DNA from: an uncultured virus (IMG/VR IMGVR_UViG_3300011693_000001)
Lineage: Duplodnaviria; Heunggongvirae; Uroviricota; Caudoviricetes
Strand: one strand, 5' to 3'
IMG/VR virus record: IMGVR_UViG_3300011693_000001
Coordinates: 124,001-188,000 of that record
DNA length: 64,000 nt
The notes beneath the pieces are model-generated. The model was not told the DNA's origin. It worked only from the letters and a program-made list of their open reading frames with translations, and ran no database searches. Numbering within the stretch: the stretch's first letter is position 1; every line of letters starts with the position of its first letter. The translations under genes and the position numbers were made by a program. This document shows, piece by piece, positions 1 through 63,379 of this stretch.

Positions 1-337
1 ATTCCTACCCTGACAAGTGATCCTGAATAATGCAAATACACAAACTGGCACCTACGCACATCGCTCAAGTTCTTTATTCTGCCATTCGTGCCGCCGATGA
101 TGCTAATGAGATTATCGAGTCTATTACTCTTACGGATGATGAATTCGCACAGCTGGTAAACTGCGAAACTGTAAAGAGTACCAAGAGCAAGTGGTATGGC
201 TCTAATGAAGGCGGCTTCGTTATGACCGATATCCTAATGCGTGATATCACCATCAGCGAAGGCGGAAAGAATCGTGTCGAGCGTCTTCCTGTTTCCTGCT
301 ATTTCTGTGGCGTTAAAATAACTAGGGGTTCCATTTA

Positions 338-1117
338 ATGTTTACTCGTGAAATGCTGATCGAAATGCTGACTATTCAGAATGAACTGAATTGCGGCATG
401 GCTGGTACATCTTGGCTGACCTCTGATAATCGCACTCGCCCTTTCTATCGAGCCGCTTATCTGGAATCTGCTGAAGGTATCGATCACTACGGTTGGAAGT
501 GGTGGAAGCGTTTTGATCGCTCTGCCAACATCGGCCAAGTGAAACTGGAAGTCGTGGATATGCTGCTGTTCGTTCTCAGTGACGAACTGCGTGATGTTTT
601 CCAAGCTCAAGTTTCCGCTGCTGAAGATGAAGGCAAGAGCATCGAATGTTATGAAGATGGCATGCCTACTCAGGCGTGCGTCAATCAGATCATCGAATTG
701 ACCGCTCAGCGTATCATCGAGAAAGGTATCATCGATCTACCGGAAAGCACGGATGAAGACCTGTTCGTTCTGGTGTCTGAGCAGTTCATCGCACAAACTA
801 TCATCCGTCGCAGTGCAACTGTCCGTAATTGGGGCGCACTGGCGGATGCGCTTAACCTCACTCTTGAAGAAGCTGGCTTGTGGTATATCGGCAAATGCTG
901 CTTGAACTTCCTGCGTGACGGTAACGGCCAGAAAGAAGGCACCTACGTTAAAAATTGGTGGGGTGTCGAAGACAACATTTATCTGGAGAGACTTATCAAT
1001 GCTATTCGCACTGGTAGTTATCCTATTCAAGATGGTGATCTTCGTGGAACAATCTTTGCTCATCTGCAAGAGCAATACCGTCGGCTTATGTCCGGCGAAC
1101 CTGCACTGGAAGTCTAA
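338..1117 (+). CDS. dut: Dimeric (all-alpha) dUTP diphosphatase
   Basis: Motifs E..E.IDHYGWKWWK, QVKLEVVD, YIGK..LNFLR...G.KEGTY.K.W.G.EDN typical of the Campylobacter-type dUTPase_2 family. Confidence 0.85.
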   Translation: MFTREMLIEMLTIQNELNCGMAGTSWLTSDNRTRPFYRAAYLESAEGIDHYGWKWWKRFDRSANIGQVKLEVVDMLLFVLSDELRDVFQAQVSAAEDEGKSIECYEDGMPTQACVNQIIELTAQRIIEKGIIDLPESTDEDLFVLVSEQFIAQTIIRRSATVRNWGALADALNLTLEEAGLWYIGKCCLNFLRDGNGQKEGTYVKNWWGVEDNIYLERLINAIRTGSYPIQDGDLRGTIFAHLQEQYRRLMSGEPALEV

Positions 1118-1135
1118 CTTCTGGTGATGCAGTAG

Positions 1136-1172
1136 AAAAGGGCGAGCTTCTTTACCGAGGCTACGCCCTTTT
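1136..1172. terminator. Intrinsic terminator, possibly bidirectional
   Basis: AAAAGGGCG...CGCCCTTTT inverted repeat after dut. Confidence 0.7.
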
Positions 1173-1284
1173 CGCGTTTCTGCCTTACGTTCACAAACTT
1201 ATCTCAAGTTAAACTACGACCGGAACCCTTGAGCAGTTTCTATATACTCGGCAACTGGCGTGCGGTGATCCCTGAAGAAAAATG

Positions 1285-1385
1285 TTGCCTTCCGTTTCCT
1301 GTTGTGGTAAACTGGTGCCAAGGAAAACGCCGGGAGAACGGCTATATGGTTCTTCCCGTAGTTAAGGTTCCAGTCGTAGTTAAAC
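1285..1385 (+). promoter_or_regulatory. Sigma70 promoter A plus conserved leader element
   Basis: TTGCCT(1285)-17nt-TAAACT(1308) with extended TG; CCAAGG at 1318; 18-nt repeats at 1348-1365 and 1366-1383. Confidence 0.75.
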
Positions 1386-1716
1386 AACGAGGTAAGTATG
1401 GCAAAAGTATCCCACGCTCTTGTTCGCCCGCTGGCTCAACTTGTCTGCGATGGTTGTCTCGACATAACCAGCTTCGTCGACGAACTCAAACGAAACAGGC
1501 TTATTGTTTCTTCCGTTGAATTGTCGACAGCTCCGTTGCTCGATCATATGTCACGCGCAGTAGAGGTGAAGCCTTATATCGTTGCCTGTATCGTGCATGA
1601 AGATGCGCCGCACTCGGAGCCTGTGTGTTACGCTCTACAAACACCGCAACCTGTTTAAACAAAATCTGAGGCCGGGCAACTGGCCTTTAACTCTCCGAAT
1701 AAGTTAAGGCGAGAAA

Positions 1717-2181
1717 ATGCTGAACCACATGATAACAGAGCCTGATATTTTCCAGAAAGCTGTTGCTCGCTCTTTGGATTACGCGGCCCAAGGATTTCCC
1801 GGTTGCGATAGTGAGCTGATCGATATCCTGCCTAAACTAAATGCGCTGCCCGGTATCGCTACGCTGTGGAGTTGTGCGAGCCATGTAGAAGTTAGCGGTT
1901 CGGATAATCAGTTCTACATCGCCGTGGCTGTAACGGAAGAAGGTATGCGCCACATGGTTAGCATATACGAGGAACTTTCTCGCATCGCGCAGCCGAAACT
2001 GGATGATGAGACAGGCTGTTCACTCCGTTTGGAATTCAGTCGCCTGATCGCTGGTTTGTTTGAGCGACCCGATGTTCGCTACAATATCATGGCTATCGAC
2101 TGTCTTGTCAGTGATGCTGATAACAAATGGGCGCTTCTTGATTCTCTGGCAGAAGCACTAACTAATTACAGGCCCAAATGA
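1717..2181 (+). CDS. Hypothetical protein, possible TYW3-like fold
   Basis: LN.LPG..T.WSC.SH motif. Confidence 0.3.
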   Translation: MLNHMITEPDIFQKAVARSLDYAAQGFPGCDSELIDILPKLNALPGIATLWSCASHVEVSGSDNQFYIAVAVTEEGMRHMVSIYEELSRIAQPKLDDETGCSLRLEFSRLIAGLFERPDVRYNIMAIDCLVSDADNKWALLDSLAEALTNYRPK

Positions 2182-2945
2182 TGAACCTAGAAAGCTTTTT
2201 GTTTGGAGGGTTCATCGACGAACACCGTACGAAGAAGGCGAATCTTCTACTTGCTCGACTGACAGAGAAATATGGTAAGCCCCGCATAGGAACAACACGC
2301 GCTTGTTTCTTCTCCAAACATTTCGTTCTCAAATTCCCGATCAATGATCGTGGTGAGTTCTGCAATGATTGGGGAGGGCAGTGTGTTACTGAAGCGGAAC
2401 TCAGCACATACCCATATTGCCACATCCTTCACAAGAACAAAATCATTGAGCTGTTTTAAGGAGAACACTATGAAAAATCGACCAAAGCAGGGTGCTATCT
2501 ACACCGCCAAACAAATTCTGGAAGAACTGGACCTGATGGACAGTCCGTTCTTCCGGTTCCACCACAACAATGAGATTCAGGTTATCCAAACTTCTCATTG
2601 CGGCGACGGCGCATTGTTGGAAGTTCCCGGCTTCGCTGAATCCCGCTGGCGGTACGAGCGCACAACGGATGAATGGATTCCGTTGTTTATGCTCGACGTG
2701 GATCAGGACATAACGGAATGGGTTGATATGGAACCTGATAATAACCCGTATGTGGACAACAATCGGGTCATGTACGTGACTCCGAAAGGATTCCCCGAGA
2801 GACAATACTACAGCATTGTGGAAGACAAGGTTGTTTCTCCGTTCGGTGCCGTATACGATCTGCCTGTGTTTGACGAACACGGTGAGCGTATCCGCGCTTA
2901 AACAAATCGCCCGCTTTAACCGGCGGGCATCTTCGGTGGCTCAAA

Positions 2946-3086
2946 ATGTATGATCTTAATTGTTTCACCTGCAACGCGCATATCGGCTATGTATATAGCT
3001 CAGCCCCTGTTCATCCGATCAATTGCGTCTCTTGCGGACAAAAAGAGATTGAGGAAGAGCTGAGAAAACAGGAAGAGGAAGGATGA
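2946..3086 (+). CDS. Small zinc-ribbon protein (46 aa, not in ORF track)
   Basis: MYDLNCFTC...INCVSCGQKE; two CxxC; its TGA overlaps the ATG of the next gene. Confidence 0.6.
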   Translation: MYDLNCFTCNAHIGYVYSSAPVHPINCVSCGQKEIEEELRKQEEEG

Positions 3087-5712
3087 ACAAACTATTCAAT
3101 TGGAAAGAACATCCCGCTTCGGTCTTCTACTTAGCGTTTCCGATTGCAGCACTAGCCATTGTGCTTCTGCTCGCACGTGCCGTTATTGAATGGTATGTGA
3201 ATGATAATTGGGGTTACGCTGTGTTGTTTGTGTTCTTCATCGTACTCGGTGTGCTGGCTCTTCTGCCAGCCTACCGTCTCTACACCATCGTTAATCCAAA
3301 GGAGTAACATATGTTTGAACTGGAACTGGAACAAGATCAAGCTAAGCTGCATACCGCAGTCAACAAGCTTCTTGACGAAACCCTGAAAGCAGGGAAGACA
3401 ATCTGTTTTGCTTCTCCGATTGGTTTGCTGAAAACCACTGAGTTTCAAATCATCGATGGGAATTCGATTATCCAAGAGATTCGGGACTATACTTGCTCTA
3501 TTGAGTTCGGCAAAATGTTTGGTACGTGGGTATTCACTGAGTTCGGTGACGGTTATTGTGTGTTTTCCAGATTGGCAGAAGACATTATCACCGCCTCTGC
3601 TATTGAGGATGGTCAATATCCGCGTGTAACTTCCGGTGGAGATTTCTGGCCCTAACTTATTCTCATGGCGATTCTTCCGAGTCGCCATCGGAATAGTGCT
3701 ATGTGGTTATCGACTCGCTGCTTAGTGCTACTTCTGAGAGTCGAATGGAGAAACTGTTATGCATCCTGCTGATTGGAAAAAACTTGAGTCTGCGACTCTG
3801 AAAATTCTGACTGATGCGCAAGCTATGCAGAAGCGAATTGTTATCGTGAATGCTAGCGACTTTTTTGAAAGCTGCCGTTTCGCTTTCTTGAAACGCAAAG
3901 ACTTTCGTTGCAGCGTTGACGATTATCTGGCAACAACCGCTTTCCGTAAGGAAGAACTCGGGCAGTGGTTGTATGTGAACTACGAGAATGAGTATGATCT
4001 TTTCGTGAATCTCATGCCGCACGATACCGATATCAAACGTCCTTGGCTTCAGAGTCTGATCGACAGTCCTGATGTTGTCATGCAAGGATTTTCCAAGGTG
4101 AAGCTACCCGAACCTGATCCTTCATTCCACATAAAGTTTGCTTCGGGAGAAGAAGAAACCATCCACGGCTACGTGAATCTATCTGAAGCGCTTGAAGCCA
4201 TCGAGAATGAACCACGCTTTGCGAAATATGGATCGGTTGTCTCGATTAATCTGATCGAACGGTGATTCAATCGCGGCTCTTCGGGGCCGCATCTTCTACC
4301 GAGGTGTGTAATGGAAATTCTCGAAGCCACTGTTCTTGTCGGTATTGGAACAGACAACGTACGTTTGCTAACTAATCTGCCTCAACCTATTTGGCCCTTC
4401 GATGGTAATCTGACGATGCAATTTGAAGTGGCGAAAGGTGATGGTGTTGAGTATGTGAGCAAACACTTTAAGCTGGAACCTGAAGTAATCAAAATGGCTG
4501 GAGCTTAACATGATCGTTTCTTCTGTCCGTGTAAACATGAATGCCATCGTTCAGTTCCGTTTGACTGAGGAAGGCGAGCGTGCGTGGAAAGAGATTGCAG
4601 AGACTGAAGCCCGTATCTACAAACTAAACACGCCGCGAGAAATCCCCTACTATGATGGTTCGCAGAAACTCATACGCATGACACTGTGGGATTTCGCAAA
4701 CTTTCTTGGCGAGAGGTTTATCATAGGCGGACCTCTGTTGATTCAAGACAACGAGATTGAAATCTTCGGCCCTGAAGGTGAAGTATGACCGTTAAGTTCC
4801 TGCATCATGGCAACAGAAAACTCTCAACTTGAGATTGTTATCTCGGAAGAATTTTGGAGTGCAACATGAACCTGTATGAGTTCAAACTGGAACGTCATTA
4901 CGAAGACGGTAGCGTCAAAGCTACTGATTACCAGATTCCTGCAACTTCGGAAACTGATGCTCTTATTTCGCTAGGCCGCACGTATCACGGCGATGACTAC
5001 GATGTTAAGGTTGTCAGTTGTGAACTTGTTCGCATTGGCGAAGGTACGGAGCTGGACAATTTCCGCAAGCTTGCCTTCAAGCTGAAAAAGGAGTTCGAAG
5101 CGGAGCGTGGAGATATCACCTGTGAGTTTTCCACGACGACTGATGACCTTCGAGCTAAGTGGAAAATTCTTCAGATGGATCAACCAGAAAACGGCCACTG
5201 GCATCTGCACGTTTGTTCAGTATGTATTTCTGACTCTCCAACCCATATCATCCACTGTGAAATTATCCGAAACGAGTAATTACGGGAATGGGCATTGGCA
5301 ACAGTGCCCATTGGTAATCACTCCAACATAAGCTGGGAGGTTGTATGGAAATCAGTTTCCAAGAAAGTGATCTTGTTAGAATCATATCCCGCATCGTTCT
5401 GCGCAATGTACGCCACCGCCTAGAAGAGACTGGTTTGTCTGTACCTGATAACTTATCAGTTGTGTGGACAGCTAAAGGGTTTTGCCATGTAACCGTGAAC
5501 AATATCACCCTGCGAATTCCGTATCTGGATCAGATGGTAACTAATCGCAGTTTGCCATTTAGCCTAATTGAAAACCAAGGAGAGTAAGATGGAAACCAAA
5601 ATCTCGGAATCTACACTAGCACTAGCCAAGGCGGTTATCCCCAACTTTCAGGGCCACTGTAAAAATATGCTAGTGATGCGAAAACACCGATAGCTGTCCT
5701 TGCAGAAAAAGC

Positions 5713-5813
5713 TTGACCCTACCAGATAGATGTTGCTATACTGAACCCAAGGCGACGACGGGGACACAGCCATTTGGTTCTGACCGTTGTTAAGGTTCCA
5801 GCTGTAGTTAAAC
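5713..5813 (+). promoter_or_regulatory. Sigma70 promoter B plus conserved leader element
   Basis: TTGACC(5713)-18nt-TATACT(5737) with extended TG; CCAAGG at 5747; repeats at 5776-5793 and 5794-5811. Confidence 0.8.
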
Positions 5814-5825
5814 TAGGGAATAAGT

Positions 5826-6182
5826 ATGTACGTCTATCGGTTAGAAGACCCTGCGGGTAATGGGCCGTTTTACGGTAAGCAAACTATCGCCACATACTTG
5901 CATAGCCACAATGATCCTACAGTGCATCATATGCTGGCTTCGATCAAACACACTCGGCGCCAGTTTGATCGTTACCTCAAAGACTACGTGTTCGGTTGGA
6001 GTACGAAAAAGCAAGCGCTCGCGTTTGTTCGGAAGAATCGCCGTAACGTTGTTCATATGTTGGGGTGGCGTATCAACCGCTACAGTGTTTACAAACACAG
6101 TGTTGTTCGCTTTCACGATGGTCAAGTCATGTTCATCCGCGAACGCGCTGTTCACGACCAAACAATTTCCGTAACTGGATAA
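5826..6182 (+). CDS. Early hypothetical protein, possible ADP-ribosyltransferase-like fold
   Basis: First gene after promoter B; VYRLE...FGWST...GQVMF pattern. Confidence 0.3.
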   Translation: MYVYRLEDPAGNGPFYGKQTIATYLHSHNDPTVHHMLASIKHTRRQFDRYLKDYVFGWSTKKQALAFVRKNRRNVVHMLGWRINRYSVYKHSVVRFHDGQVMFIRERAVHDQTISVTG

Positions 6183-6267
6183 AGGTGTTACGATGACTTT
6201 CTCGCTAATCACCTAAAAGCAAAAACGCTTTCAAACTAAAATTATTCTTGGATAGGGGAATATCCTA

Positions 6268-6711
6268 ATGGCTCGTAAATCATCTGGCTGTGTTGTTTAC
6301 CGTATCAACGAAGAACTGGCGACGATGGAAATTCTGCTGGTCAAATCTAGGCAGGGTAAGAATTGGGTTTTCCCGAAAGGTGGCGTTGAGCCTGATCTGA
6401 CTTCGCGTGAATCTGCCGCGAAAGAAGTTTACGAAGAAGCTGGCGTGCGCGGCGTTGTCGGTCAGAAACTCGGCATGTACCGTTACGTGAAAAATGACCA
6501 GATGCAGAAAGTTACCATGTACGCCATGCGTTACACTGGCGAAGCTGCTGACTGGCCGGAAGAAGGTCTGCGTGAGCGCAAGTGGTTTGCTGTTGAAAAA
6601 GCGATGAACAAAGTTAGCGAATTCCTCGCGCCGTTCATTCGTGACGTTATGAAGATGAGCCTTGAGAATGAAATGAAAGGTCTGGAAGACCCAACCTCAT
6701 TTGACGAATAA
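6268..6711 (+). CDS. NUDIX hydrolase
   Basis: Nudix box PKGGVEPDLTSRESAAKEVYEEAGV. Confidence 0.93.
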   Translation: MARKSSGCVVYRINEELATMEILLVKSRQGKNWVFPKGGVEPDLTSRESAAKEVYEEAGVRGVVGQKLGMYRYVKNDQMQKVTMYAMRYTGEAADWPEEGLRERKWFAVEKAMNKVSEFLAPFIRDVMKMSLENEMKGLEDPTSFDE

Positions 6712-7127
6712 CGTCGCACATTCTATTGAATAACTCCGCATAAGCTAAGGGGTAAACATGGAAACTAAAGAAGTATCGTATCGTCGTCGTGTAGTTGCAA
6801 CCATGTATCGCGGCAAATCCAAGGAAGTGATTCTGGTCCGTCACTTCGCCTACTTCGACACCGCAATGCCACGTGTTGTTCAGCTCGCAATCAGCTACGG
6901 TAACGAAGGTGACTTCGTTGAGTTCCACAGTCAAGAGTTTGGTTTTCAGATTGGTGTGTTGCAGATCAAGAAAGGCAACCGCTTTGATATCGAAATGAGT
7001 CCGATTGTAAAATCCAGCCCGAGCCTGTTGAAGTTAATGAGCGAATCGAAGACGCTCTGAGGAACAACATGAACACCACTGACTACGCACACTTCACTTT
7101 CTGAAGGCACTTTATAGGAATACGAAC

Positions 7128-7502
7128 ATGGAATTTACAAGCAGTATGATCGTGGCTCTCAGCGGATTGACTGCCATGTTCATCACAACGTTTCTTCGCG
7201 GTTTTTAGAACAAGAACGTAGCGGGCGGCCACAAGCTACTAGCGTTTTTCTGTGGCGGGGCGATGACATTGTTCGAAGGTGTTGTCATCGCATTGATCGC
7301 GCAGTCTGGTAAAGAACTCATCTTCTTTACTGCGCTTGGAAGTGCTTTCGGTTGGGTATGCGGCATGTTTGTCCACGAGTGGATCATGCACAAGAAGATC
7401 AAAGCGGCTAAGAAAGCCAAGAAGACCAAGCGTCAAAACAAACTTGAGGCACTTATCGAAGAACGCCTCGAAGAACGCCTAAAGGAACTAGGAGTCGCCT
7501 AA
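7128..7502 (+). pseudogene. Membrane protein gene interrupted by an in-frame TAG (paralog of 10205..10606)
   Basis: ATG 7128 with RBS; MF.TTFLRGF[TAG 7206-7208]NKNVAGG aligns with TTFLRGFQNKNVAGG of the paralog, which has CAG. Confidence 0.8.
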
Positions 7503-7748
7503 TGCACTATTTGCTTATCTTCTGGACTAATCATTCTGGTCCAGAAATTTTTCTAATCGAGAACGCTTTGGCAGAAGATGTTCGCGCGATTGAAGGACTG
7601 ATTGACCTAAAGGAGCCGGAAGCTAAGCAAAAAGCTGTAAACGAGTTTATGAAAAAGTGCTATTCGCACGCACGGTGCACGTACAAACCAGATGACTGCC
7701 TACTAAACGGCAGCGTTCGCATCGTCAACTTTTACTAGGAGGTACACA

Positions 7749-8240
7749 ATGGTAACTAAAACTTATCCCGGCAAGCGGAAAAAGTCACAACTGAACTCTC
7801 TGGAGTCGTTTTTGGCACATAAGCTCCTGCTCGACCACAATGACCTTCAAGTGATCATGAAGGCTGTCAAGGACTGGTTAGCCAACAGCCAGTTCGGACA
7901 ATCTGTGCGAGTTCTGCACGATAGCATAAATGCGGCGCGAGAAGATAAGGACTCCCTATCAGCCCTTCTGCGTGACGCAGGCGTTGAGATTCCTACATCG
8001 CGTATCGTAGAATCGTTGGAGATAATCGACAACGTTATGAGCGAAAGCCAACTCGATTCGCTGTATGCGGAACTCAATAAAGCAGAACAACAACGGAATG
8101 CCATTCTCGACATTCAAGGTGATTATCCGGACGTCAAGGTTCCGAAGGTTCTCACCGCTCGAATCAATGAACTCAACACTACCATTCGTGAAATGAAGGC
8201 CAAGTACCCTGACTTCGCCTATCCAGCAATCGTAGGTTAA
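7749..8240 (+). CDS. Hypothetical coiled-coil protein (paralog of 16002..16565)
   Basis: Shared C-terminal Y..(V/M)(K/R)VP..L...YP(D/E)F. Confidence 0.6.
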   Translation: MVTKTYPGKRKKSQLNSLESFLAHKLLLDHNDLQVIMKAVKDWLANSQFGQSVRVLHDSINAAREDKDSLSALLRDAGVEIPTSRIVESLEIIDNVMSESQLDSLYAELNKAEQQRNAILDIQGDYPDVKVPKVLTARINELNTTIREMKAKYPDFAYPAIVG

Positions 8241-10204
8241 CGCAAAATGCCAATGTCATTCCCAGATATGGAATCTCTGCAAAGTCGTGCGAAGCAACGC
8301 GGCTTCCGTCAACCTAACGAAGGTGAGACAGAGGCAGAGTACCGCACCGCCTTTGCCGACTTCATGGTAAATGTGGATCGAGTTGAGTCCGTTGAAATCC
8401 GCAACAAACTCGGCTGGGATCAGCAAGACCCGCGAGCTATGTTGGAAGCTATGGGCATCTTCCCTAAGTCAGTCTAAAAGAATAGGTGTACTTTGAGCAA
8501 ACATGAATTTAAAGCTTACTCGCAGTCTGTTTGTTTGCCTGATTCGTGCTCAGGTGGTCCTAACCTAGAGTACGCCATGCATGCATTCTACGGTGATTTA
8601 GCGGCCATGCATTCTAATGCAATCAAGAAGGTTGAGCGTCGGATAGCCGCTTTGGAAAAACGGCTGGGACAACAAGCTGTAGATAAATCCTACCTGTCCG
8701 GCTTTACTGTGAAGGATGGGAAAACTTATCTACAAGTCCGCATTGTCTTTCGACTGAAACTTAAACTTCAAGCGGTCAAATGAGAAGTTAACCTACGGTT
8801 TGCTTCGACCCTTCAAAACATAACTTCCAGAAAGGAACGCTATCATGCTTTGGTTTACTGTTTTGTTTGGCCCCATTGTTTTCGGTTTCCTTCACTATAA
8901 CTTCGGCCAGCAGCCGTGGTTGCTGAATATGGCAAACAACGATCCGGTGTTTGCCTATTTGCTCACTGTAATCTTTTACTACACCGTTCTTGGTTCGGTT
9001 TATCTTCTGCGCTGGTGCATCGCGCGCCGGACTAAAACTATTCTCCGCTAAAATAAGGTGAACAAAATGGCCAACGCTGCCGCTCTTCTTGTTAATGTCA
9101 AGACCAAGCTCGGAAAAACTGTGCCGGACTACGCTAAGAAACTCTCTGCCGATCCTACTGGTGGGAACATGGCACGTGCTGAGCGCGAGTTGTTTGATCT
9201 GTTGACCTCGATGCGTAACAGCACTCGAAAAGAGTTGTTTGCACAAGATACCCGCTTGCAGGTTTGGTTCGCTGATCAAACGTGTGATGCTTGATATGGA
9301 AGAAATTCTCATACCAGTAGATGCAAAAGCTCTACAACGTATTCTCGAAGCTCTGTACGGTCCACCTCATCTGATTCGAGAACTTCAGGCAACTGTTTCG
9401 TTACCTGACAATCCGATAGAGAAGATACGCGAACAGTACAATACTTTTGTTTTGGCTAGGAGGGAGAACCTTTCATGCGAACCTTCATCGACGACGTAGA
9501 GAACAAGGTGTTTCGTTATTCTGCCTACCGCTTGTATACAGATGGCGGTTATCACATAAATATCTTCGGCGCTAAGCATCTGGATGAAGCTAAAGAGGAT
9601 GCTCTGCTTGTGAAAGAACATTTGCATATCGAGAAAGTCCATTCGATAAACGAGGGTCACTATGGGCACCAGTAAGCGGCTAATAAAGATTCGCCCACAT
9701 CGCGGATCGCTAATCGAGTCAATGCGTCAAACTAAAACGATTGAACCTACAGCAGAAGCCGTTGCTTTTGTTATCAATCGCACTGATGGCTTTGAAGGTT
9801 TCATAGCTGAGTGTTTGCCCGGAGACGTTACTGTTGAGCCATACGCAAACGATGAGCGCGATCCCGAATGGAATCAGACGTACATCGTTAAGTTTCGAGG
9901 GAACGTTTTCGGCTATACTAACGGCCCGCTTGATCCACCGTTGCGTTACGTATGGTTGAATATCGCCACGGGCGAATTCTCTGATTCGTGGCTCGAATCT
10001 GATTGGGGAACCGTAACAAGGGATTCGCTAATAACAGACGCCAAGAAAGATACGCCTCCTGACGCACAGCCAGTTTGGAAATTGATTGAATACCGTTGCC
10101 TGACTGATGACAATTTTCAGTTCGACAGAAATATGAGGCTGCCGTGAGTTAGCGCCGGCAATCTTTTCGATAAACGTGAGATAACTGAATAACCGAGGTT
10201 CATA

Positions 10205-10606
10205 ATGGAAGTATCGTTCGATACACAAGCACTTTTGATTTACGCAACCGCCATTCTAACGATGTTTGCCACTACGTTCCTTCGCGGTTTTCAGAATAAA
10301 AACGTTGCCGGTGGCTACAAGAAACTCGCAGGTATCTTCGGTTACGCGATGGCTGTCTGCGATATGTTAACAGTTGGCTTGATTGTCAAGGGAGGTATGA
10401 GTGTAGCTTTCGTCGGTGCCTTCGGTGCTGCCCTCGGTTGGGTAGTTGGTATGATGGTTCACGATGCCATCTTGCGCAAGCGTCAAAAAGAAGCCTCACG
10501 TTTGAAGAAAGAGAAGAAGCGCACTAAGCGCGAGCAGTATATTCTCAGCTTGATCGAAGAGCGGTTAAACGAACGTGATTTAGAAAAACGAAACTACGAA
10601 GCGTAA
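10205..10606 (+). CDS. Hypothetical membrane protein (about 3 TM plus basic coiled tail)
   Basis: Hydrophobic segments and Lys/Arg-rich C-terminus; GAGG RBS. Confidence 0.7.
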   Translation: MEVSFDTQALLIYATAILTMFATTFLRGFQNKNVAGGYKKLAGIFGYAMAVCDMLTVGLIVKGGMSVAFVGAFGAALGWVVGMMVHDAILRKRQKEASRLKKEKKRTKREQYILSLIEERLNERDLEKRNYEA

Positions 10607-11734
10607 TAATAGCTAAACGTGCATAAAGGAGCTACCGATCATGGTTAAGATCAACGTCGTTAATAAGCCGGTCAATGGGGTAGAGTATGAGTTTGTGGTT
10701 CTCTCCTGTGAATCACCAGCAGCTATCTACTCCATCGAAGTTTCTACGCTGAGCACTACGCTGCGAGCAGACGGTTTAGTAGTTGGGAATTTCCCTTCTC
10801 GCCCCAGCACGAAAGAGCTACTGCGTGTTCATAGTAACCTCGAAGTTGATATTGAATTGTTCCTACAAGAAACAAATGATATCGCTAAGACTCGCATGCT
10901 TACTCAGATGCGTAGCGGCGCTGGTTCCATTATCTGACGGTGGCATAAATGTCTCTGCATAAACTCACGGCTGCTCTAATGCTGACAATGTTCCTGTCGT
11001 ATGTTGGTCTGATAATCTTTGGTGTGTGTTTTCCGCACCGTGTCGTTTTCGGCTTCGAAACTACACGCGATGTTTGCTTCGCACTGACACTGTTGTTTGG
11101 CTTTATCGCTTCTGCCGTTACGGTTAGCGTTATGAGCCTTCGCGTGTTGAATGGCGATGCTGCTTGGTAAAAACAGAGGGCATATAAATGGAAATGTTCA
11201 AAGTAACTTTGGCGGGCGGGCAGGAATATTCGGTAGAATCTGTTCGCGGTAAAGAATCGTTAGAGTTAGTTCTTCAAGGGACAGACGCGACCATCGAGCG
11301 TTATGAAGGTGATCCAATATTCAATTTTCACCTACGGGCACAGGAGAAGGAAGAATTGCTACTTCTGGAAGTTCGAGCGTTGCGCTCCTTCATTGAAGAG
11401 CAAGCCAACCCTAAACGTGCTGTTAAAATACGACTCAATATGTCTGCCGGGCAGGAAACAACGTTCGGTAAGATTCTAGCTAGCTTGTACTACGGTAGAG
11501 GGCATGGTCTTTTGGAACGCGCACCGGGACGTTCAGGGTATCCCCATAACGGCGGTTCTCACACTCTGTACCTAAATGGAGCAGTGGGGAGCATTCTGAA
11601 TTTCTTCGAAGAACTCCAATCTAGTTATCCTAATGCTAAACCCGCACTGGATAATTTGCGCCAACAAATTAAGGATGGTACTAAACCGATCCGGTTGCCG
11701 CACGGCTTCTAATATCCGACTGAGAGTAGCACTT

Positions 11735-12379
11735 ATGAACACCACCAGTTTCGAAAAGCTGTTAACTACCACACGGCATTGGCTCAAAGGACTTGCGGCA
11801 TACGATAATCGTTTTTACGATGTTCTGCAAGCCTTGGACTTCTTTGCGAACATCCATAAAGACGAACTGCGCAAGGATGGTAAAACGCTGGGGTTCTATC
11901 ATCAGCTGAACATGCTTGCTTTTGCTCGCACGCAACATCGCAATCTCACTGATCCTGCAAGTGTGTACATTGCAATTCTCGGCCACGATGCTGTTGAAGA
12001 TTACCCGGAGCGGTTTGAGGAAATTTCAAACAACATCAAGCAAAGCGATCTGCGCAATATCTGTCTTCTGGATAAGAATCGTGCGTCCAGCTTCGATAGC
12101 TACATGGATGCTATCGCACAGGATGAAGTTTGCAGTGTAGTTAAAGGTATCGACCGTATTCACAACTACAGTACGATGGCAGGTGTTTTCTCTACATTGA
12201 AGCAGGAATCGTACGCGGAAGCAGGGCGCATGTATTTCCTACCTATGCTGAAAATAGCACGTCGTCGTTTCCCTCGCCAAGAACCGTTGTATGAACTGCT
12301 GAAGTCCGTGATGCTAATGCAAATTCATGCAACTGATCATTTGGTTGACGCTTTGAAACGAGTGGAAGTTGGTGTCTGA
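11735..12379 (+). CDS. HD-domain (p)ppGpp hydrolase-like protein (SpoT/Mesh1-type small alarmone hydrolase)
   Basis: H...RKDG...YH, AILGHDAVED, VKGIDRIHN motifs of the RelA/SpoT HD domain; no synthetase domain. Confidence 0.8.
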   Translation: MNTTSFEKLLTTTRHWLKGLAAYDNRFYDVLQALDFFANIHKDELRKDGKTLGFYHQLNMLAFARTQHRNLTDPASVYIAILGHDAVEDYPERFEEISNNIKQSDLRNICLLDKNRASSFDSYMDAIAQDEVCSVVKGIDRIHNYSTMAGVFSTLKQESYAEAGRMYFLPMLKIARRRFPRQEPLYELLKSVMLMQIHATDHLVDALKRVEVGV

Positions 12380-13649
12380 TATGAACAATTTCTTTGTTTA
12401 CCTCTTCAACCGTTCCGCTGCGCTAGAGAAGACTATTGAAGAACATCCGTATCTCGCGCATTACATTAATTATCCTTTCGAACGCCGCTCCTATTATCTA
12501 AGCGATGAACACAGCAGCCTAGATGCTACTGTGGCTGTGCTTGTTCTCGCACGCCATCGGATTTACTGGCGAGATTCTATGTGTGAATTGCCGGAAGACT
12601 TGAAATCTAACGCAGCTCGTGATGTTCTCGCTTATGCTCGTGCTATGTTCCAGATTGGTTTTCCACACGCCGACCCCTCAGAACTAGAAAGTCGTGTGTA
12701 CAAAAACGCTACACCTTTTTCAGAGCATGAGTTACTGCGTGCCTGCGTTGCCGCTATGCATAGAGCGCCGCCGCTCTATACTGGAACTTTCTATCGAATC
12801 GATTAAACAAGGTGATATCGTGATGCATAATGCAGCTGATGTACTTGAAGCGAACGGGAAAACCATTCGGGAAAACAACAACGAAACAACACACGCTATT
12901 CCGCTAGGCACGTTGGTTGAAATCAATTCGCCTTGTCTTTCCGATTGCGGATTGCGTCTTTATGTACATTCACACATCCGCGATTGCGACGGTACTCCGT
13001 TGTATACCCTGACACATCGCTACGATCTGGTAGGTCAACCTGTAGGCGCTGCCTATATCCGAAGCCTAGCGGAAAACTCGGAAGATAAAGCACTATCCGA
13101 GAAAGCGCTTACAGGGTTTATCGCAAACCAGCGTGAAGGTGCTACCACGGGTGGTTATCCTGAAAGCATGCTGACTGTTATTCGTCTTCCTCGCACGGAG
13201 TTGTAAAATGGCAACAGCTGAAGGTTTGGGTTTTCACCTTGCTTTTCTGGAAGGTAGTTGGACTAAAGTATGGGATGACGGTAGTTGTATGTCAGTTACC
13301 GCTGAAGAAGTTGCCATGTGGCGGGAGCTTAATGTTCAGGTCAATTACTATGTTCAAGAAGAGAATCCTTCTGCGGCACAAGGTATGCGCCTGTTCATCA
13401 ACTTTTTCCTCGACAATGAGCCACATACTAAGATTCAAACTCTGTCCGATCTTTGCGCTTGGGGCGGTTATGATAAGTCGCAACTGTACTCGGAACAGAA
13501 CCGTCGAATGCTGTCTTGGGAATTCAGCAGTGAAATAGCGCCTGCTGTAAAAGTCTTGCTGAGACGATGGGAATCTAAGCATAACTGGAAAGAGGAAGAC
13601 CCTAGCAAAGTCTGGCCATGAAAATGAGAGGGAGCTTCGGCTCCCCCCG

Positions 13650-14726
13650 TTGTCTGTCTCACTGAATAGGATATTCATCGTGGAACATACTCGAAAGAAC
13701 ACCTTCGACTTTCTACGTTTCTTCGCAGCGCTGTTAGTGTTTTATGGACATTGTTACTGGCTGACAGGAAATGTAGAGTTGGAACCTCTGCTTCGCCTAT
13801 CAGGGTATAAGGATATGCCTGATTTGGGCGTCGATATTTTCTTTGTTATCAGCGGCTTCCTGATAACTATGTCTTTTCAACGATCAAAGACCTATCGCGC
13901 CTTTGTGCTTAATCGAGCCATACGTATTTTCCCCGGACTGATAGTAGCTGTGTTATTCACAGCGCTAGTCGTCGGCCCTCTGGTAAGCGTTTTCTCTACC
14001 TCCGCTTATTTTGCTGACTATAAATTCTGGCGCTATCTTCTGAATGCCCTACTGTTAACCTCCTATAGTTTACCCGGTGTGTTTGAAACCACACCATTTG
14101 CTGATGTGGTGAACGGTTCTCTGTGGACATTACCGCAAGAAGTAGCTATGTACTGCATGTTGTTTTCCGCAGGCGCTCTTGGTTTACTCAAGCCTAGATT
14201 GACCGCTATCATTCTGTTTCTGCTGGCGCTGGGTTTAATCGTAACTGTTCAGCTACCGGAGCTTCCTCACACAGTACGTTCTTTTTTCCGATTAGGATTC
14301 TTGTTCTTCTCTGGAGCCTTCTACTTCCTAGTACAGCAGCACGTACGTTTTAAATCGTCCGTGGTATTCTTTTTCCTTTTCCTTTTTGTGGTAACTGGCC
14401 ACACTGAAGCATGGTTGCCTATCTACTACGTTGCGTTACCCTACATAGTTCTTTGGGCATCGCAGTTAGATATTCCGGCTCTTACTTCTTTTGGAAAACA
14501 TGGCGATATATCATACGGGCTGTATATATACGGCTTCATGGTACAACAAACCATCATACATATAGTAGGTGAAGCAACACCTAACGGTTTGTTCTTCGCC
14601 TCCGTGTCTTATACCTTGATACTAGCTGTTCTATCATGGCGCTTTATCGAGAAGCCTAGTCTACGTTTAAAATATCTTTGGTCGGAGAAAATCAATGCGA
14701 AAAATCAACAGTTGGGAAGACCTTAG
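13650..14726 (+). CDS. Acyltransferase family 3 (OafA/Oac-like O-acetyltransferase); start may be GTG 13680
   Basis: FDFLRFFAA..V...H, GVDIFFVISGFLI, R..RIFP, NGSLWTL..E, DISYGLYIY, SWRFIEKP; multiple TM segments. Confidence 0.93.
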   Translation: MSVSLNRIFIVEHTRKNTFDFLRFFAALLVFYGHCYWLTGNVELEPLLRLSGYKDMPDLGVDIFFVISGFLITMSFQRSKTYRAFVLNRAIRIFPGLIVAVLFTALVVGPLVSVFSTSAYFADYKFWRYLLNALLLTSYSLPGVFETTPFADVVNGSLWTLPQEVAMYCMLFSAGALGLLKPRLTAIILFLLALGLIVTVQLPELPHTVRSFFRLGFLFFSGAFYFLVQQHVRFKSSVVFFFLFLFVVTGHTEAWLPIYYVALPYIVLWASQLDIPALTSFGKHGDISYGLYIYGFMVQQTIIHIVGEATPNGLFFASVSYTLILAVLSWRFIEKPSLRLKYLWSEKINAKNQQLGRP

Positions 14727-14865
14727 CAAACTGATAAAAGAACAAGGCGGTGTGTCAGAAGTACGCATGCTTGCTTCCATGCCTGAGAGGGCAAAGCCTA
14801 GCGTCATACGTGACACATGCGAAGGTATTCATCCTGAACGTAAATTTCCTGAGAAAAGAAAATGA
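14695..14865 (+). CDS. Small hypothetical protein (56 aa) overlapping the acyltransferase 3' end
   Basis: GGAG RBS then ATG 14695 (MRKINSWEDLSKLIKEQGG...); its TGA overlaps the next ATG. Confidence 0.5.
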   Translation: MRKINSWEDLSKLIKEQGGVSEVRMLASMPERAKPSVIRDTCEGIHPERKFPEKRK

Positions 14866-16001
14866 CAGGCTACGTTACCGAATACATTAACAAAATCGCG
14901 CCGGAACACGGTCGCACCAGTTGCAGCGACACTAACCTATACAACGCCGCATACGGTTTGGATGACTTCGATGGGCACGGTCGCTGTTACCGTTGCACGT
15001 TGCTAGCAGCTGCGGCTTCGTCTATCCAAGTAACCGAAGAAAAAGTGGAATCAGTAGCTATGGCAGTCCTCGGTTACGACACTGATCCTTCTCCGGGTAT
15101 CAATTGGTCCTGTAGTCGGGTTTGGAAAGTCAACACCGTACGAGAACGTGTGAAGGCTGCCTTGAATAAAATCTTCGGTAGTGAGGATAAAGAAAGTGAG
15201 CCTGCATAAACAACAGCTAACCGTAATGGAAGAGGAAGGATTAAGAGCGCACGGCTTAACCGTAGGCGCACCTAGTCAATTATCTGATGCCTTTCGTCAC
15301 GGTATAGCATGGGCCGTTAAGAACTACAGTCAAATCACTGTACCTGAAGGTTGCCAACTAGTTCCAATACGTCCAACAACGCAGATGCTTGCCGCTTGTA
15401 CAACGTCTAAGAATGAAATGCTTCGACAAGAGATAATGAGAATGGCAGCTGAAGACTACACAGCTATGTTGTCGGCCGCACCGAGCTTGATCGAACTACT
15501 AACAGATAAGGAAACGGAAGATGGGTAGCATCCAACGTAAACATCAATCCCGCCGCTTGGGTTACGATAGTTTTGATCGTGGCGATTGGGACAACCACCT
15601 CGTTATTACAAAGGACTAGTAATCATGCGAACCAGCATCCAACATATTGCAAATCACATCGTAAGCGTCGGTAACTGGAAACCTGACTGCTGCGGTAAGC
15701 AGGATTTCGACCTGCCTCTGATTTCCACTAGTTGTCGTTACTACCCCCCCGACAATACAATTTACGCATCGGTGCTGCTGTACGTGGATGGTACTGAGCA
15801 GGGAGACTATATCCAACTGGCTCATACTGAAATCAAAGGTGAAACGGAATCAGCGGCGAAGACCTCTGTTGAAGAATGGTTTCGAGAGCAGATTTCTAAA
15901 GTTGTAGCTTGCACTATCACAAATTTCTCCATAAGTGATAGTGAGAGTGAGCGGGTGGATAAGATTTTTGCCCAAGATCAAATTCCTGATTAACATAACG
16001 A

Positions 16002-16565
16002 GTGTGTAAAATGCAAAATGATGTAGAAGCTATTCCTGAAGAGATTCGGGAAAATGTAGTTATCGATAATATGCAGCAAGCTATAGATGCTTTCGAAAAA
16101 GCATTCCATGAGCAGATCGTTGGCGAGTGTATGCTAGACTACGATCTTATCTCTAAGGCGGCTCGCCAGCATCTACTAACTTTCCTGATCAACTGCGGGT
16201 TCGGAGATTCTCTTACTCGACTGATCAACGTCATCGATGATCTTGCTGTAATGCGCCCTGCTGACATTCCAGACAAAGCACTTAAGCGTACGTTGATACG
16301 CCTTTGCAAAGATCACGAAATCAAGCTGATCGATATGCGAGAATTGGCAGAAGCTTTACTGCCAGAAGAGGAAGAGCCTGATATGCAATCCGCTTTCGCT
16401 GAGCTGCAAGCTCGATACGCTGAGGTCCAGCATGAGTATGAAACCGCAGTTAAGCTGAGCCATCAGTATCAGGAAATGCGAGTCCCTGCTGCCCTCAAAC
16501 GTAAGTACGAGGAAACGCGAGAAGAGTACAATACCTTCCTCGAAGAATATCCAGAATTCAACTAA
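16002..16565 (+). CDS. Hypothetical coiled-coil protein (paralog of 7749..8240)
   Basis: C-terminal YQEMRVPAALKRK...YPEF. Confidence 0.6.
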   Translation: MCKMQNDVEAIPEEIRENVVIDNMQQAIDAFEKAFHEQIVGECMLDYDLISKAARQHLLTFLINCGFGDSLTRLINVIDDLAVMRPADIPDKALKRTLIRLCKDHEIKLIDMRELAEALLPEEEEPDMQSAFAELQARYAEVQHEYETAVKLSHQYQEMRVPAALKRKYEETREEYNTFLEEYPEFN

Positions 16566-19098
16566 GGAATCTCTTATGCAACCGGAAGAACTTAAGCCAC
16601 TGAACAAATACCCGCAATGTCCGATGAATGAAGACCTTAGCCGTTTGTTGATGGTGCTGCTTATGGCAAAACCTGCGCAAATCGAATCGATGGAAAATGA
16701 TGTTTGCGCTGTTTTCCTCTATCGTGTTATCGCAAAGCGTGTCGAAGTTCTAGGTATTCGTGTAGAAACAGCAGTGATGATTTTCATCATGTTCGCCTCA
16801 AGCAGTCCAGCGGATGCTGTTATGTTTATCCATTCCTTATGGATGCGTGCGCGCGAAACTGACCCGACTGTCGAAATAACATTGGCTGATTTCTGTAAGA
16901 TGTACGCTGAAGGTTTCCCCAACGGGGCCGCTAAGTTAGAGGCGTGGAATGCTCAGAAAACGCCAGAGGGAATTAACCTGCTAGATACCATGACTCGACT
17001 TTAAGAGCGTAGCGAATGCGTGTTTCTTTTGAAGCCAATGCTTTTTCTTCACTAGTTCTCGAACGGAGTATGTTAAGCGGGAAGGATAGCAATCTGCTAA
17101 ACAGTCTGATTCAGGATTACTACCGTGAGCGTATGGTAGCCCCGATTGTTCCGCAGATTGCTAAAGCTGCCTACAAAAATTTCACCGAAGCACTAGCTCA
17201 AGGCTTGGACAGCACTGAGTCGATGTACATAGGAAACTTCGTTGATGAAAGCTTACGTAGCATTGCTAGTTTGATGATACGTTACGATGAGAACTTTGCT
17301 GTAGTCGGTAACGGAGGTATCGAAGAGCTGCTATCTCTAATAGGAGGTAAGCTACATGGCTCTGTGGTAACACTAGGGAGTGTATCAGGTTGTATTGTAT
17401 TCGATCAATCCATGACTACCATACGAGTTAAGAGGTTAGTTACATGATTCAGATTTACACCAACGCTGCTGGAACAAAACGATTTATCGTGAACGGAAGC
17501 AATGGTCACTTCAAGGATCAAAATATTCTCTCTGTTCACTCTAAGTCAGAGTTCGTAGCTCTGATAGAAAAGTACCACTTGGTTGAAACACCCATTACTC
17601 ACCGCTCTTATAACCTGAGCATTCAGGCGGCGGGCAAAGAGTTGACGGTTAGAGTTACGTTGTTCAGCCTAGAGAAAGACTTGCCCGGCTTGTGGTTCCG
17701 TGGTGAGATAACCAGAACCACCAGTGATCGTCGCGTGCTGCCTTGCTACTTCTCGCTTATTCCTGTGCGCAAAAAGCGTGGGGTTTATGAGTTCCGTCCT
17801 GTAGTAAATATGATCCACCTGAGCGGCGCTGAACTCTCTATGTTCCGTCAAGAGTATGATGGGTATGAGTCTATAAAGGAATCTGTGTTGAAGAACGCGG
17901 ACTACGTTTCTCTAGGTATCGTTGGTAAAACACGCGAACGTCTTTCTGTGTCGGCTTAAGGTACTAGTATGCTGGATCAAACTTTAAAGTTATTTGACTT
18001 AAGTGACCATCTGCTAAATGAGTTACTTGAGCAGGATGTTTTAGTGAAGGGCACCTCAAGAGCGAGTTCTCATCTGACTAACAAGATGATAGTATCCTCC
18101 ACTCCTCTTCATATTCCAGATTTTTCTGCATTGGAGTCTCGCTTACTAGAAGGTGGTCTGTTTTGGAAAACCAATTGGCAGTCCACTGAAAGTGTAGCCA
18201 AAGCATTTGCCGCTGGAGTGTTACTCCGTGGCTTGGAATACGATATGGAAGCTACCATAGATTTTTCCACATGGTACGACAACTTCATTATGAAAGAGCC
18301 GTAGCTTACGGCTTTGGCCAAAGCGGTTGGTTTTGTTAAACCAACACCAATCATCATTTCACATGAGGCAAACCCAACAGTATAAGGAGAACTTAATGGC
18401 AGTAGAACGCGCTTGGAGTTCGGAGGACGGAACAGTCCTCCTATACCTGTCGAGAATCAGCGGTGAGGACATTGCACATCTAAACAACAATGGGGATATA
18501 CGCACGGTCTTCAAACAAGGTGTCGATATGACTCGTGCGATATCTGCCATTCAAAATGAATTCCAGAGAAAGAAAATCGATCTTCTGGAAATACCTATCT
18601 ACTCGCGTAACGCTGAGATTCGAATCCATACGGTGCAGAACGGGCGTGAGCGAGTTTTTCAGGTTCGTGTGCAGAATACGCTAATGAATTTGGGAGGTAA
18701 TCCACACGGCATCGAACAGCTAGTTATCGCAACTCATATGATTCACGGCAATCGTATTGAACCGCGACAAGAACATTCAGCAATGATCTTGCAGAATGGG
18801 AATAAGCTGATCGGTCTTGTTCAGGGATGGGAAACATCGGCGGAGATACTGGAATGAAAACGTGGATAGTAAAAGTAAAATCACATAGCGCCGGCATGCA
18901 ACAGGTTACACTGGTAACGGACGAGGCCACTGATATAGAAACTGTCCGCTCTTACGCAGAGGGTATTTATAGTGATAGGCGCTTTGGCATTACAGTGGAG
19001 TCAGTAGAAGCCGGGCGTAGTGGAGTTCCCTATTTAAATATCCCTGATATTGTTCTCGACCCAGCAGTAGCAGATTAGAAACTAAGCCTACATTTTAC

Positions 19099-19200
19099 TT
19101 GACTTTAGGAGGACATAGGGCTATACTTGTTTCCAAGGGCAGCAGCGGGTAGGCACCATTATGGTTCCACACGTTGTTAAGGTTCCGCTCTTTGTTAAAC
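19099..19200 (+). promoter_or_regulatory. Sigma70 promoter C plus conserved leader element
   Basis: TTGACT(19099)-17nt-TATACT(19122); CCAAGG at 19133; repeats at 19163-19180 and 19181-19198. Confidence 0.85.
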
Positions 19201-19273
19201 TTGCGACATAGTTGAGCAAACGTTGCATATAGCTAATCCGGGCTTTCCGGCAAACCTAGTAAGGAGATACACC

Positions 19274-19762
19274 ATGAGCAAGCAAATCGAAACCAATCTG
19301 GCCAAAGCTCTTGACCTGCTGTACACGATCCGTCGTGAAATCAACAGCAATTCAAAAACCAATGCCGAGTCGGTTGCTGCGGTGAAAGATATCCTGAAAG
19401 AGAACTCTAAAGAAATTACAGCCTTGATGAAAATTCGCCGCGAGCATGTTGCGGCTGAACGGGCTGCGAAGAAAGCAGAAAAGCAAGCGACTCCGAAAAC
19501 CACCCGCGCTAAGCAGGCTGCTGAAAAAGCAACTAAGACTCCGCGCGGCAAAAAAGAAGAAGCTCAGCCGTTGACTGTCGGTCAACTGAAGAACAAGGAA
19601 ATCAAGATCGGTCGTTCTTCTGCCGTTATCCTCAAAGTCACTCGCGGTAAGAACGGCCGTAATGCCGTCACGCAAAATGCGATTATCCCGGTCGATCAAA
19701 TCAGCATTGATCGCAAAGGCGCGCTGGTTTGGAAGAAGCCGCGTAAGACAGCATCAGCCTAA
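19274..19762 (+). CDS. Basic Lys/Ala-rich early protein, probably nucleic-acid binding
   Basis: Strong AAGGAG RBS; first gene after promoter C; AAKKAEKQATPKTTRAK tract. Confidence 0.6.
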   Translation: MSKQIETNLAKALDLLYTIRREINSNSKTNAESVAAVKDILKENSKEITALMKIRREHVAAERAAKKAEKQATPKTTRAKQAAEKATKTPRGKKEEAQPLTVGQLKNKEIKIGRSSAVILKVTRGKNGRNAVTQNAIIPVDQISIDRKGALVWKKPRKTASA

Positions 19763-63378: not shown

Positions 63379-63379
63379 T

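Follow-up and report, generated by a model that had tools for sequence, protein, structure and literature searches.

Tandem 18-nt units at a fixed distance downstream of seven sigma70-type promoters are candidate operator sites of a shared regulator in a jumbo phage genome

The gal system has a downstream operator near position +54 together with an upstream site about 115 bp away, and the ara system combines adjacent direct-repeat half-sites with a distant site. The C1 operators of phage P1 are dispersed, asymmetric, single or paired, and overlap promoters. Elements of the put, nut, boxA and ops types stand at the heads of early transcription units, and the put RNA of phage HK022 consists of two adjacent stem-loops in the nascent leader. 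Here we describe a promoter-leader cassette of an uncultured tailed virus (Caudoviricetes; IMG/VR record IMGVR_UViG_3300011693_000001), which shares single properties with such systems. The cassette was found in a 64,000-nt stretch of DNA, referred to as the window, which represents bases 124001-188000 of the 259,605-bp virus record. The record carries terminal repeats, has a G+C content of 46% and belongs to a jumbo phage.

A first-pass annotation of the window had described three sigma70 promoters that each precede the hexamer CCAAGG and two tandem 18-nt repeats. These elements read as it had claimed: the -35 elements start at 1285, 5713 and 19099 and are paired with sigma70-type -10 elements (TAAACT, TATACT and TATACT), CCAAGG lies 4, 4 and 5 nt past the -10 element in copies A, B and C, and the first repeat starts 30, 29 and 30 nt from the start of CCAAGG. 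The two repeats, referred to as unit 1 and unit 2, occupy 1348-1383, 5776-5811 and 19163-19198, each pair being followed by AC. The AA of CCAAGG was taken as the predicted transcription start. Promoter A matches the sigma70 consensus at 8 of 12 letters, which is under the cut-off of the promoter scan, and was read directly from the sequence. The features of the three window copies are as follows.

1285..1313, + strand: promoter A, TTGCCT, 17 nt, TAAACT
1318..1347, + strand: 5' segment of leader A, with CCAAGG, the G-run CGGGA and an AT-rich end; predicted to pair with unit 1
1348..1365, + strand: cassette A unit 1, 25.2 bits
1366..1383, + strand: cassette A unit 2, 26.2 bits
1398..1658, + strand: first gene after cassette A, 86 residues, no family; ATG 14 nt past unit 2
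5713..5742, + strand: promoter B, TTGACC, 18 nt, TATACT
5747..5775, + strand: 5' segment of leader B; predicted to pair with unit 1
5776..5793, + strand: cassette B unit 1, match to pattern and weight matrix
5794..5811, + strand: cassette B unit 2, match to pattern and weight matrix
5826..6182, + strand: first gene after cassette B, 118 residues, phrog_1106, unknown function
19099..19127, + strand: promoter C, TTGACT, 17 nt, TATACT
19133..19162, + strand: 5' segment of leader C; predicted to pair with unit 1
19163..19180, + strand: cassette C unit 1, match to pattern and weight matrix
19181..19198, + strand: cassette C unit 2, match to pattern and weight matrix
19274..19762, + strand: first gene after cassette C, 162 residues, rich in Lys and Arg, no family; ATG 75 nt past unit 2

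The tandem 36-nt pattern matched three times in the window, against 0.00 matches expected from 100 shuffles. Three leader-bearing promoters is the correct number for the window, but a scan of the whole genome identified seven cassettes, each consisting of a sigma70-type promoter, a spacer of 33-35 nt and two tandem 18-nt units of the form GGTTC-N5-DTWGTTAA. The whole-genome pattern scan placed them as follows.

Window, + strand: cassettes A, B and C, at the positions given above
Genome 1227-1262, - strand: cassette D
Genome 5030-5065, - strand: cassette E
Genome 9399-9434, - strand: cassette F
Genome 246093-246128, - strand: cassette G

The layout is the same in all copies: a TTGnnn-17/18-TAnnnT promoter, unit 1 starting 33-35 nt past the -10 element, and unit 2 abutting unit 1. 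The distance from the -10 element to unit 1 is kept in 7/7 copies, including F and G with their unrelated spacer sequences. Across all 14 tandem units, 12 of the 18 letters do not vary, while no resemblance remains among A-E, F and G in the 5-6 variable letters within the unit or in the 27-nt spacer. The junction between the units reads (T/A)GTTAAGGT in 7/7 copies. Two details of the original description needed adjustment. The unit pattern holds, but its 3' block, for which G or T had been given as the first letter, can open with A as well; and CCAAGG is common to A, B, C and E, but is replaced by CCAAGC in D and absent from F and G. All tandem pairs lie on the transcribed strand within the 5' untranslated region (UTR), at about +28 to +63. 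The first start codon follows unit 2 at 13 or 14 nt in A, B, E and G (13, 13, 14 and 14 nt), at 30 nt in F, at 75 nt in C and at 115 nt in D. The genome holds five mostly intergenic sigma70 matches with at least 10 of 12 consensus letters, and four of these five bear the cassette; promoters B and C match at 10/12 letters, D at 9/12 and E, like A, at 8/12. The same site is thus present at the promoters of 7/7 cassettes and at 4/5 of the best intergenic sigma70 matches, as would be expected of an operator shared by co-regulated promoters.

The 14 tandem units were turned into a weight matrix, which was scored over the whole genome. This matrix isolates 17 sites of at least 19.8 bits, the next genomic site scoring 16.8 bits; from reading the individual sites, matches of 16.8 bits and lower are probably background. 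None of the 17 units is more than 140 bp away from one of the seven promoters. The three sites beyond the 14 tandem ones are single inverted units, one each ahead of promoters A, D and E, with centres near -101.5, -92.5 and -85.5 relative to the predicted starts and scores of 22.0, 24.5 and 19.8 bits, respectively. Sites in either orientation and outside the transcripts, as are known for operators, are represented by these three units. The one in the window is the following.

1210..1227, - strand: inverted unit of A, GGTTCCGGTCGTAGTTTA on the - strand, 22.0 bits, no stable local fold on either strand

Read by eye, the DNA between the inverted units and the promoters has no similarity among A, D and E. 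A stable RNA fold of the inverted units was not found (z = -0.28 for A, +1.49 for D and +0.51 for E), and the possibility that they act as loop-displaying antisense hairpins was rejected, as their folds are no better than those of shuffled sequences. Another single match, at window 63314-63331, scored 13.7 bits, a background-level value, and was discarded as the arm of a terminator-like hairpin. The region 63290-63400, which follows a gene ending at 63155, contains two GC-rich hairpins with T-runs, the first of which gave this chance match.

We propose that the tandem units are duplex-DNA operator sites of one sequence-specific phage regulator on the early promoters, a tentative reading to which we assign a probability of roughly 0.38. 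The invariant letters of unit 1 stay the same across three different RNA structural contexts, so that a single trans-acting factor appears to recognise the units by their sequence; pairing in the RNA makes no difference to the invariance of either unit, and no pairing partner exists for unit 2. The fixed distance to the -10 element, combined with the variable distance to the start codon, ties the units to the promoter and not to the ribosome binding site. The inverted copies lie outside the leader transcripts and are conserved although their promoter-side flanks have diverged, and they have no fold of their own, which favours duplex DNA as the target. We infer from these properties that the units are bound by a protein, that the target of this protein is DNA and not RNA, and that its effect is negative. 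Such a regulator would act on all promoters of the host RNA polymerase, that is, the early promoters, together. The units would lie just past the downstream edge of the promoter-bound polymerase. They would also be met by polymerases that have read through from the preceding early promoter, cassettes A, B and C being co-directional. A protein bound there could block both escape and elongation, by which the early transcription units would be switched off together. At the three promoters with a third, inverted unit (about -85 to -101), this unit could take part in a loop enclosing the promoter, like those of gal and ara. The copy-specific 5' hairpin with unit 1 as its 3' arm would then be a separate RNA feature, for example a 5' stabiliser.

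The comparison with described operators shows both agreement and difference. As with the OE and OI sites of GalR and the I1-I2 and O2 sites of AraC, sites flank the promoter and a tandem pair is combined with a distant site. In this genome, however, the unit is 18 bp long and asymmetric, both tandem units follow the start, only 3/7 promoters have the distal site, which is not in a common helical phase, and the seven promoters are dispersed over the genome of a lytic-type jumbo phage. The P1 C1 operators are comparable in that one asymmetric site occurs singly or in pairs at many promoters of a large phage genome, but they differ from the present units, which are located at +28 to +63, have no sequence likeness to C1 operators and are not accompanied by a recognised C1-like protein.

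Several observations weigh against the operator reading. A position of +28 to +63 is unusual for an operator, and the unit lacks dyad symmetry and does not overlap the polymerase footprint. The inverted units are present at only 3/7 promoters, and their distances to unit 1 (123, 130 and 139 bp, centre to centre) have no common helical phase. No helix-turn-helix or other DNA-binding regulator was found among 221 open reading frames (ORFs) scanned against Pfam or PHROGs, a set that excludes 99 ORFs of genome 20-124 kb and 9 ORFs crossing locus borders; the early ORFs are almost all ORFans. At the RNA level, the sense strand of the leader folds more stably than the antisense strand in 7/7 copies, by 0.4 to 6.4 kcal/mol, the antisense being less stable because several of the pairs are G-U. 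The leaders also pair best with their own unit 1: the observed sum of duplex energies was reached by 9 of 5040 partner permutations, and in a partner-swap test based on fold energy 35 of 5040 permutations matched the observed value. In F and G a second hairpin specifically includes unit 1 despite an existing first 5' hairpin, which argues that unit 1 matters in the RNA. Finally, the units can be read as codons, and a start codon abuts or nears unit 1 in 6/7 copies. The first-pass annotation had itself raised a phage repressor binding the repeats as its alternative explanation; this alternative gained from the three inverted units outside the transcripts and from the invariance of the units, and lost from the absence of dyad symmetry and of overlap with the polymerase footprint.

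In an alternative explanation the cassette is an RNA tag, with a 5' hairpin including unit 1 and an exposed unit 2 on every early transcript, recognised by one trans-acting reader. We regard this as possible but doubtful; the reader would be a phage or host RNA-binding protein or nuclease that sets stability, processing or translation of the early transcripts jointly. A search of the genome for RegA (PF01818) found none. The 27 nt ahead of unit 1 fold back onto it as a long imperfect hairpin in A, B, C and E. A perfect 8-bp stem in F and a 7-bp stem in G lie directly 5' of GGUUC, which forms the (7-nt) loop, and a separate GC hairpin precedes this GGUUC-loop hairpin in both copies. The pairings that had been named for A, B and C are indeed their minimum-free-energy folds. 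Fold energies of the sense strand, with z scores relative to shuffles, were as follows.

Copy A: -14.1 kcal/mol, z = -1.74
Copy B: -14.6 kcal/mol, z = -2.03 (antisense -8.2 kcal/mol)
Copy C: -14.8 kcal/mol, z = -2.31 (antisense -8.9 kcal/mol)
Copy D: -6.2 kcal/mol, z = +0.70
Copy E: -10.6 kcal/mol, z = -2.35
Copy F: -16.2 kcal/mol, z = -1.72
Copy G: -13.0 kcal/mol, z = +0.35

The predicted RNA hairpin in the leader is moderately supported. Five of the seven copies have z values between -1.7 and -2.35, and the copy-specific pairing and the sense-strand bias agree with an RNA function, as does the location of 7/7 tandem pairs on the transcribed strand in the 5' UTR, 13-14 nt from the start codon in 4/7. 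However, copy D has no hairpin and the fold of copy G is no better than those of shuffles, and RNAalifold applied to an alignment of the seven sequences did not recover the hairpin. In the outer stem, 67.9% of the cells were paired compared to 64.7% in column shuffles, and the observed share was reached by 110 of 500 shuffles; slid controls gave 28.6-46.4%, and a single pair had changed on both sides. Natural variants in metagenomic relatives at 1336, 1343 and 1354 of leader A weaken its fold from -14.1 to -11.0 kcal/mol and alter its shape, and are not compensatory. The earlier suggestion that pairing is kept while the sequence varies is therefore borne out by the copy-specific pairing and the strand bias, but not by formal covariation, which is weak, nor by the variants of the relative. 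No copy-specific partner of unit 2 was found upstream or downstream (1854 and 2163 of 5040 permutations, respectively). A long closing helix around both units was rejected as a general feature, being present in copy D only. An RNA tag would further leave the three inverted units unexplained, and the constancy of the unit 1 letters in three structural contexts and the start-codon distances of 13 to 115 nt also speak against it.

A leader peptide, by which the first gene would be controlled through translation of a short upstream ORF rich in Val and not through the motif itself as RNA or DNA, is an unlikely explanation. In frame 2, each 18-nt unit corresponds to six codons, V-(L/P)-x-(V/I/L/F)-V-K, and an in-frame ATG (four copies) or TTG (two copies) is located 2 or 5 nt ahead of unit 1. 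It abuts unit 1 in A-E (ATG at 1346-1348 in copy A), is placed one codon further up in F and is missing in G. In A-E, a G-run resembling a Shine-Dalgarno (SD) sequence (-5.0 to -7.4 kcal/mol) is found 5-11 nt upstream, at the site of the conserved CGGGA, and 5-7 of the first 13 residues are Val in copies A-C. The invariant T at position 12, flanked by the variable positions 11 and 13, fits a codon for a hydrophobic residue. Among the variant letters listed for natural relatives, the one that falls within a unit (1354 T>A) is synonymous (CTT to CTA). In E and G the frame continues into the first gene and could add an N-terminal extension to the product. As in ilv-type attenuators and erm- or cat-type leaders, a short Val-rich ORF would be present in the 5' leader, with its start region within a hairpin. 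Unlike in those leaders, an SD-masking or terminator hairpin was not found after the leader ORF, one copy (G) has no start codon, and codon choice is frozen: the two fixed Val codons are GTT in 28/28 cases, the Lys codon between the units is AAG in 7/7 copies, and position 13 is A or T in 17/17 units, so coding alone does not explain the invariance of the units. In addition, the SD of copy F is poor (-2.1), the peptides differ widely in length (16 residues in C, 28 in B, 34 in D, 49 in F and 57 in A, with E running into the first gene), and A-E are paralogues, so that their start codons are not independent observations.

Processive antitermination, by a leader RNA of the put or nut type or by a Q-like factor loaded at the direct repeats, over long early operons had been the explanation preferred in the first-pass annotation, and it now appears quite unlikely. 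The cassette heads every early transcription unit, and the put, nut and rrn boxB-boxA elements resemble it in their location just downstream of early promoters and in the combination of a hairpin with a linear conserved stretch. They differ in that the hairpin architecture varies among the copies described here (F and G have two predicted leader hairpins, A, B, C and E a single long one, and D none of note) and in that conservation concerns a tandem sequence repeat and not a fold. A search of the window against Rfam 15 gave no match at gathering score, and a search with all seven copies gave none at E up to 1, although put may not be represented in Rfam. A match to a described family would have removed the novelty of the leaders, which is not challenged by these searches. 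The boxA consensus, GCTCTTTAACAA, was not enriched (61 matches with at most 3 mismatches versus 67.3 expected), and its only sense-strand occurrence inside the window leaders is in unit 2 of copy C. The original statement that no likeness to put or nut can be recognised is in agreement with both searches.

The idea that the early gene runs cross many hairpins was not supported. Positions 1-20000 of the window contain 35 terminator-like sites on both strands, compared to 18.8 expected in shuffles; 25 of them are antisense (- strand) and 10 sense. The 10 sense-strand sites are weak, and no sense-strand site was found in this 20-kb scan directly after cassettes A, B and C, nor was a terminator between these cassettes seen by eye. 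None was found within about 400 nt after cassettes E, F and G, and the scan listing for copy D contains none on the - strand. No N-, Q- or NusG-like protein was recognised among the ORFs scanned against Pfam and PHROGs. Antitermination was ranked low because of the lack of a known signal, the few and weak sense-strand terminators and the absence of visible terminators between A, B and C. The junction (T/A)GTTAAGGT contains the most important letters of the extended -10 element and could cause a sigma-dependent pause; TAAGGT, present in 7/7 copies, is located at about +43, far from the start. The Q element of phage 21 comes close in some respects, as Q binds two direct-repeat DNA subsites beside a sigma70 promoter (PMC6606751). 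Those subsites are 6 bp long, 8 bp apart and placed at -21 and -13, between the -35 and -10 elements (PMC6606751), whereas the units described here are 18 bp long and lie at +28 and +46.

It is rather unlikely that the cassette represents a new class of early-leader device, acting either on the transcribing polymerase or through a Val-rich ORF that couples early transcription to the translation state of the host. In the version acting on polymerase, a hairpin-timed pause would position unit 2 and the -10-like junction TAAGGT within the transcription bubble or directly behind it, and a phage factor would load onto the host RNA polymerase at the direct repeats and render it processive, a logic similar to that of Q and put with new parts.

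The distribution of the cassette was analyzed in public collections. The exact tandem pattern had no match in IMG/VR, JGI metagenome contigs or GTDB genomes. A looser pattern matched 53 IMG/VR loci; two loci with multiple matches were inspected and both are coding repeats for K-V-P-K, and the number of the remaining 51 is, by a rough estimate, of the order expected by chance. A protein-guided search for relatives with a 734-residue and a 211-residue protein found none, a 7.8-kb megablast query had no match among GenBank phages, and blastn of leader B against the same phages returned 8 records, all with E of at least 0.8, which is chance level. With at most 3 mismatches allowed, the pattern was found in 0/5 distant relatives. 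A sequence-only covariance model of the cassette (R1), a type of search proposed with the first description, recovered all seven genome copies (E from 1.6e-16 to 6.7e-13) and the inverted unit near D (E = 0.015), but nothing in the four distant relatives searched, which did not include RsoM2USA. Counting of k-mers in the whole genome and the intergenic regions of phage Yoloswag did not identify an analogous repeated leader, and in phages AD1 and Alexandra a gyrB-like gene directly precedes, without a promoter gap, the topoisomerase gene that here stands behind cassette G. The lack of a match in any searched collection indicates that the cassette is confined to this lineage. Its sequence family is new to every collection searched, while a shared control site on early phage promoters is of a known kind.

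Relatives that are about 85-99% alike are present in public reads, namely in two RNA-library runs of one sample (X1 and X2) and two DNA runs (X3 and X4). An RNA-library contig covering 19142-19768 begins 6-7 nt past the AA of CCAAGG in copy C and spans both units, and another (5729-5990) begins upstream of the predicted start of B. These contigs, which cannot map RNA ends and come from a type of library that may contain DNA, give a weak hint that the leaders are transcribed, which would suit an RNA tag. The relatives in X3 and X4 diverge just upstream of each window cassette, resembling the variable borders of T4-type promoter cassettes; joints fall at 1229 to 1303 and 18882 to 19075, with 635 additional letters at 5632/5633. 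The PeSL elements of T4-type phages are similar in that a repeated sigma70 early promoter with a conserved neighbouring motif stands at the borders of variable segments (PMC4122927). Their stem-loop is a terminator upstream of the promoter (PMC4122927), whereas here a tandem repeat lies downstream. GC-rich hairpins were seen by eye upstream of A and F, where they were not called by the terminator scans, and none was seen upstream of B, C and G. That the cassette is a passive duplicate, spread by duplication or recombination with its repeats kept by recency or gene conversion, is highly improbable: the sequence change in relatives upstream of all three window cassettes, the position of cassettes on both strands at the heads of gene blocks and the decayed SD and ATG flanks of the inverted single units, which by eye resemble partial copies, would fit, but the 12 invariant letters amid diverged neighbouring letters and spacer indicate purifying selection and not recency, and with 27 joints reported in 19 kb overall, three near promoters are only suggestive.

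Crude ORF calls place genes on the - strand in 1-19 kb of the genome, on the + strand in 19-187 kb and on the - strand in 187-259 kb. The closest named phages share about 36-46% amino acid identity in one protein and comprise Erwinia phages Yoloswag, Alexandra and the pEa_SNUABM phages, Dickeya phages JA11-JA33, Pseudomonas phage Lu11 and Ralstonia phage RsoM2USA. Part of this set is named the Lupandier group, in which a phage sigma factor is reported (PMC7412058). For Lu11, PaBG and the jumbo phages of Erwinia and Dickeya, the literature search yielded genome descriptions only and no mapped early transcription programme. Downstream of the cassettes are runs of small ORFs without known families, together with some genes of DNA metabolism. 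Cassette G is located 13 nt ahead of an intein-bearing gene for topoisomerase IV subunit A, and the first gene after cassette D ends in an acidic tail rich in Asp and Glu. Inteins with LAGLIDADG domains split the genes for the ribonucleotide reductase large subunit, a topoisomerase IV A-like protein, a primase-like protein and a 1272-residue protein (window 46946-50194; genome 243302-246079, 14958-16919 and 233810-237625). The early/middle region carries genes of RNA-repair type (RlaP, PF10127, and HAD_SAK_2, PF18143; window 23881-24693 and 31871-32725), and window 51786-53495 encodes a 569-residue protein with a glycosyl hydrolase family 5 (cellulase) domain. At the record ends (genome 1-300 and 254790-255650), long coding repeats rich in Asp and Glu are found, with words of the type GACGAAGACGA in up to 45 copies.

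Two further repeated motifs were observed. A second promoter-like motif, AACTGTAAAG(A), has 14 copies in the genome, mostly ahead of + strand genes, with examples in the window at 167-177, 37009-37019 and near 46091; one copy, CCACTGTAAAAATA, is located about 60 nt upstream of the -35 element of cassette B. Yoloswag holds 11 copies of the type AATCTGTAAATA, and the motif may be the type of promoter that the phage's own sigma factor recognises. Four intergenic regions of the present genome have the short motif TAAATTAGCA in common, and an overlapping word, AAATTAGCA, occurs in five intergenic regions of Yoloswag; together they may constitute a third conserved signal of this phage group.

In the jumbo phage described here, the transcription units of the host polymerase are marked by one short and sharply defined tag. 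The tag offers a handle for finding the regulator, for delimiting the early regulon and for studying the switch from host sigma70 promoters to the phage's promoter class. If it works on RNA or on the elongating polymerase, the tag would represent a new family beside the put, nut and Q sites.

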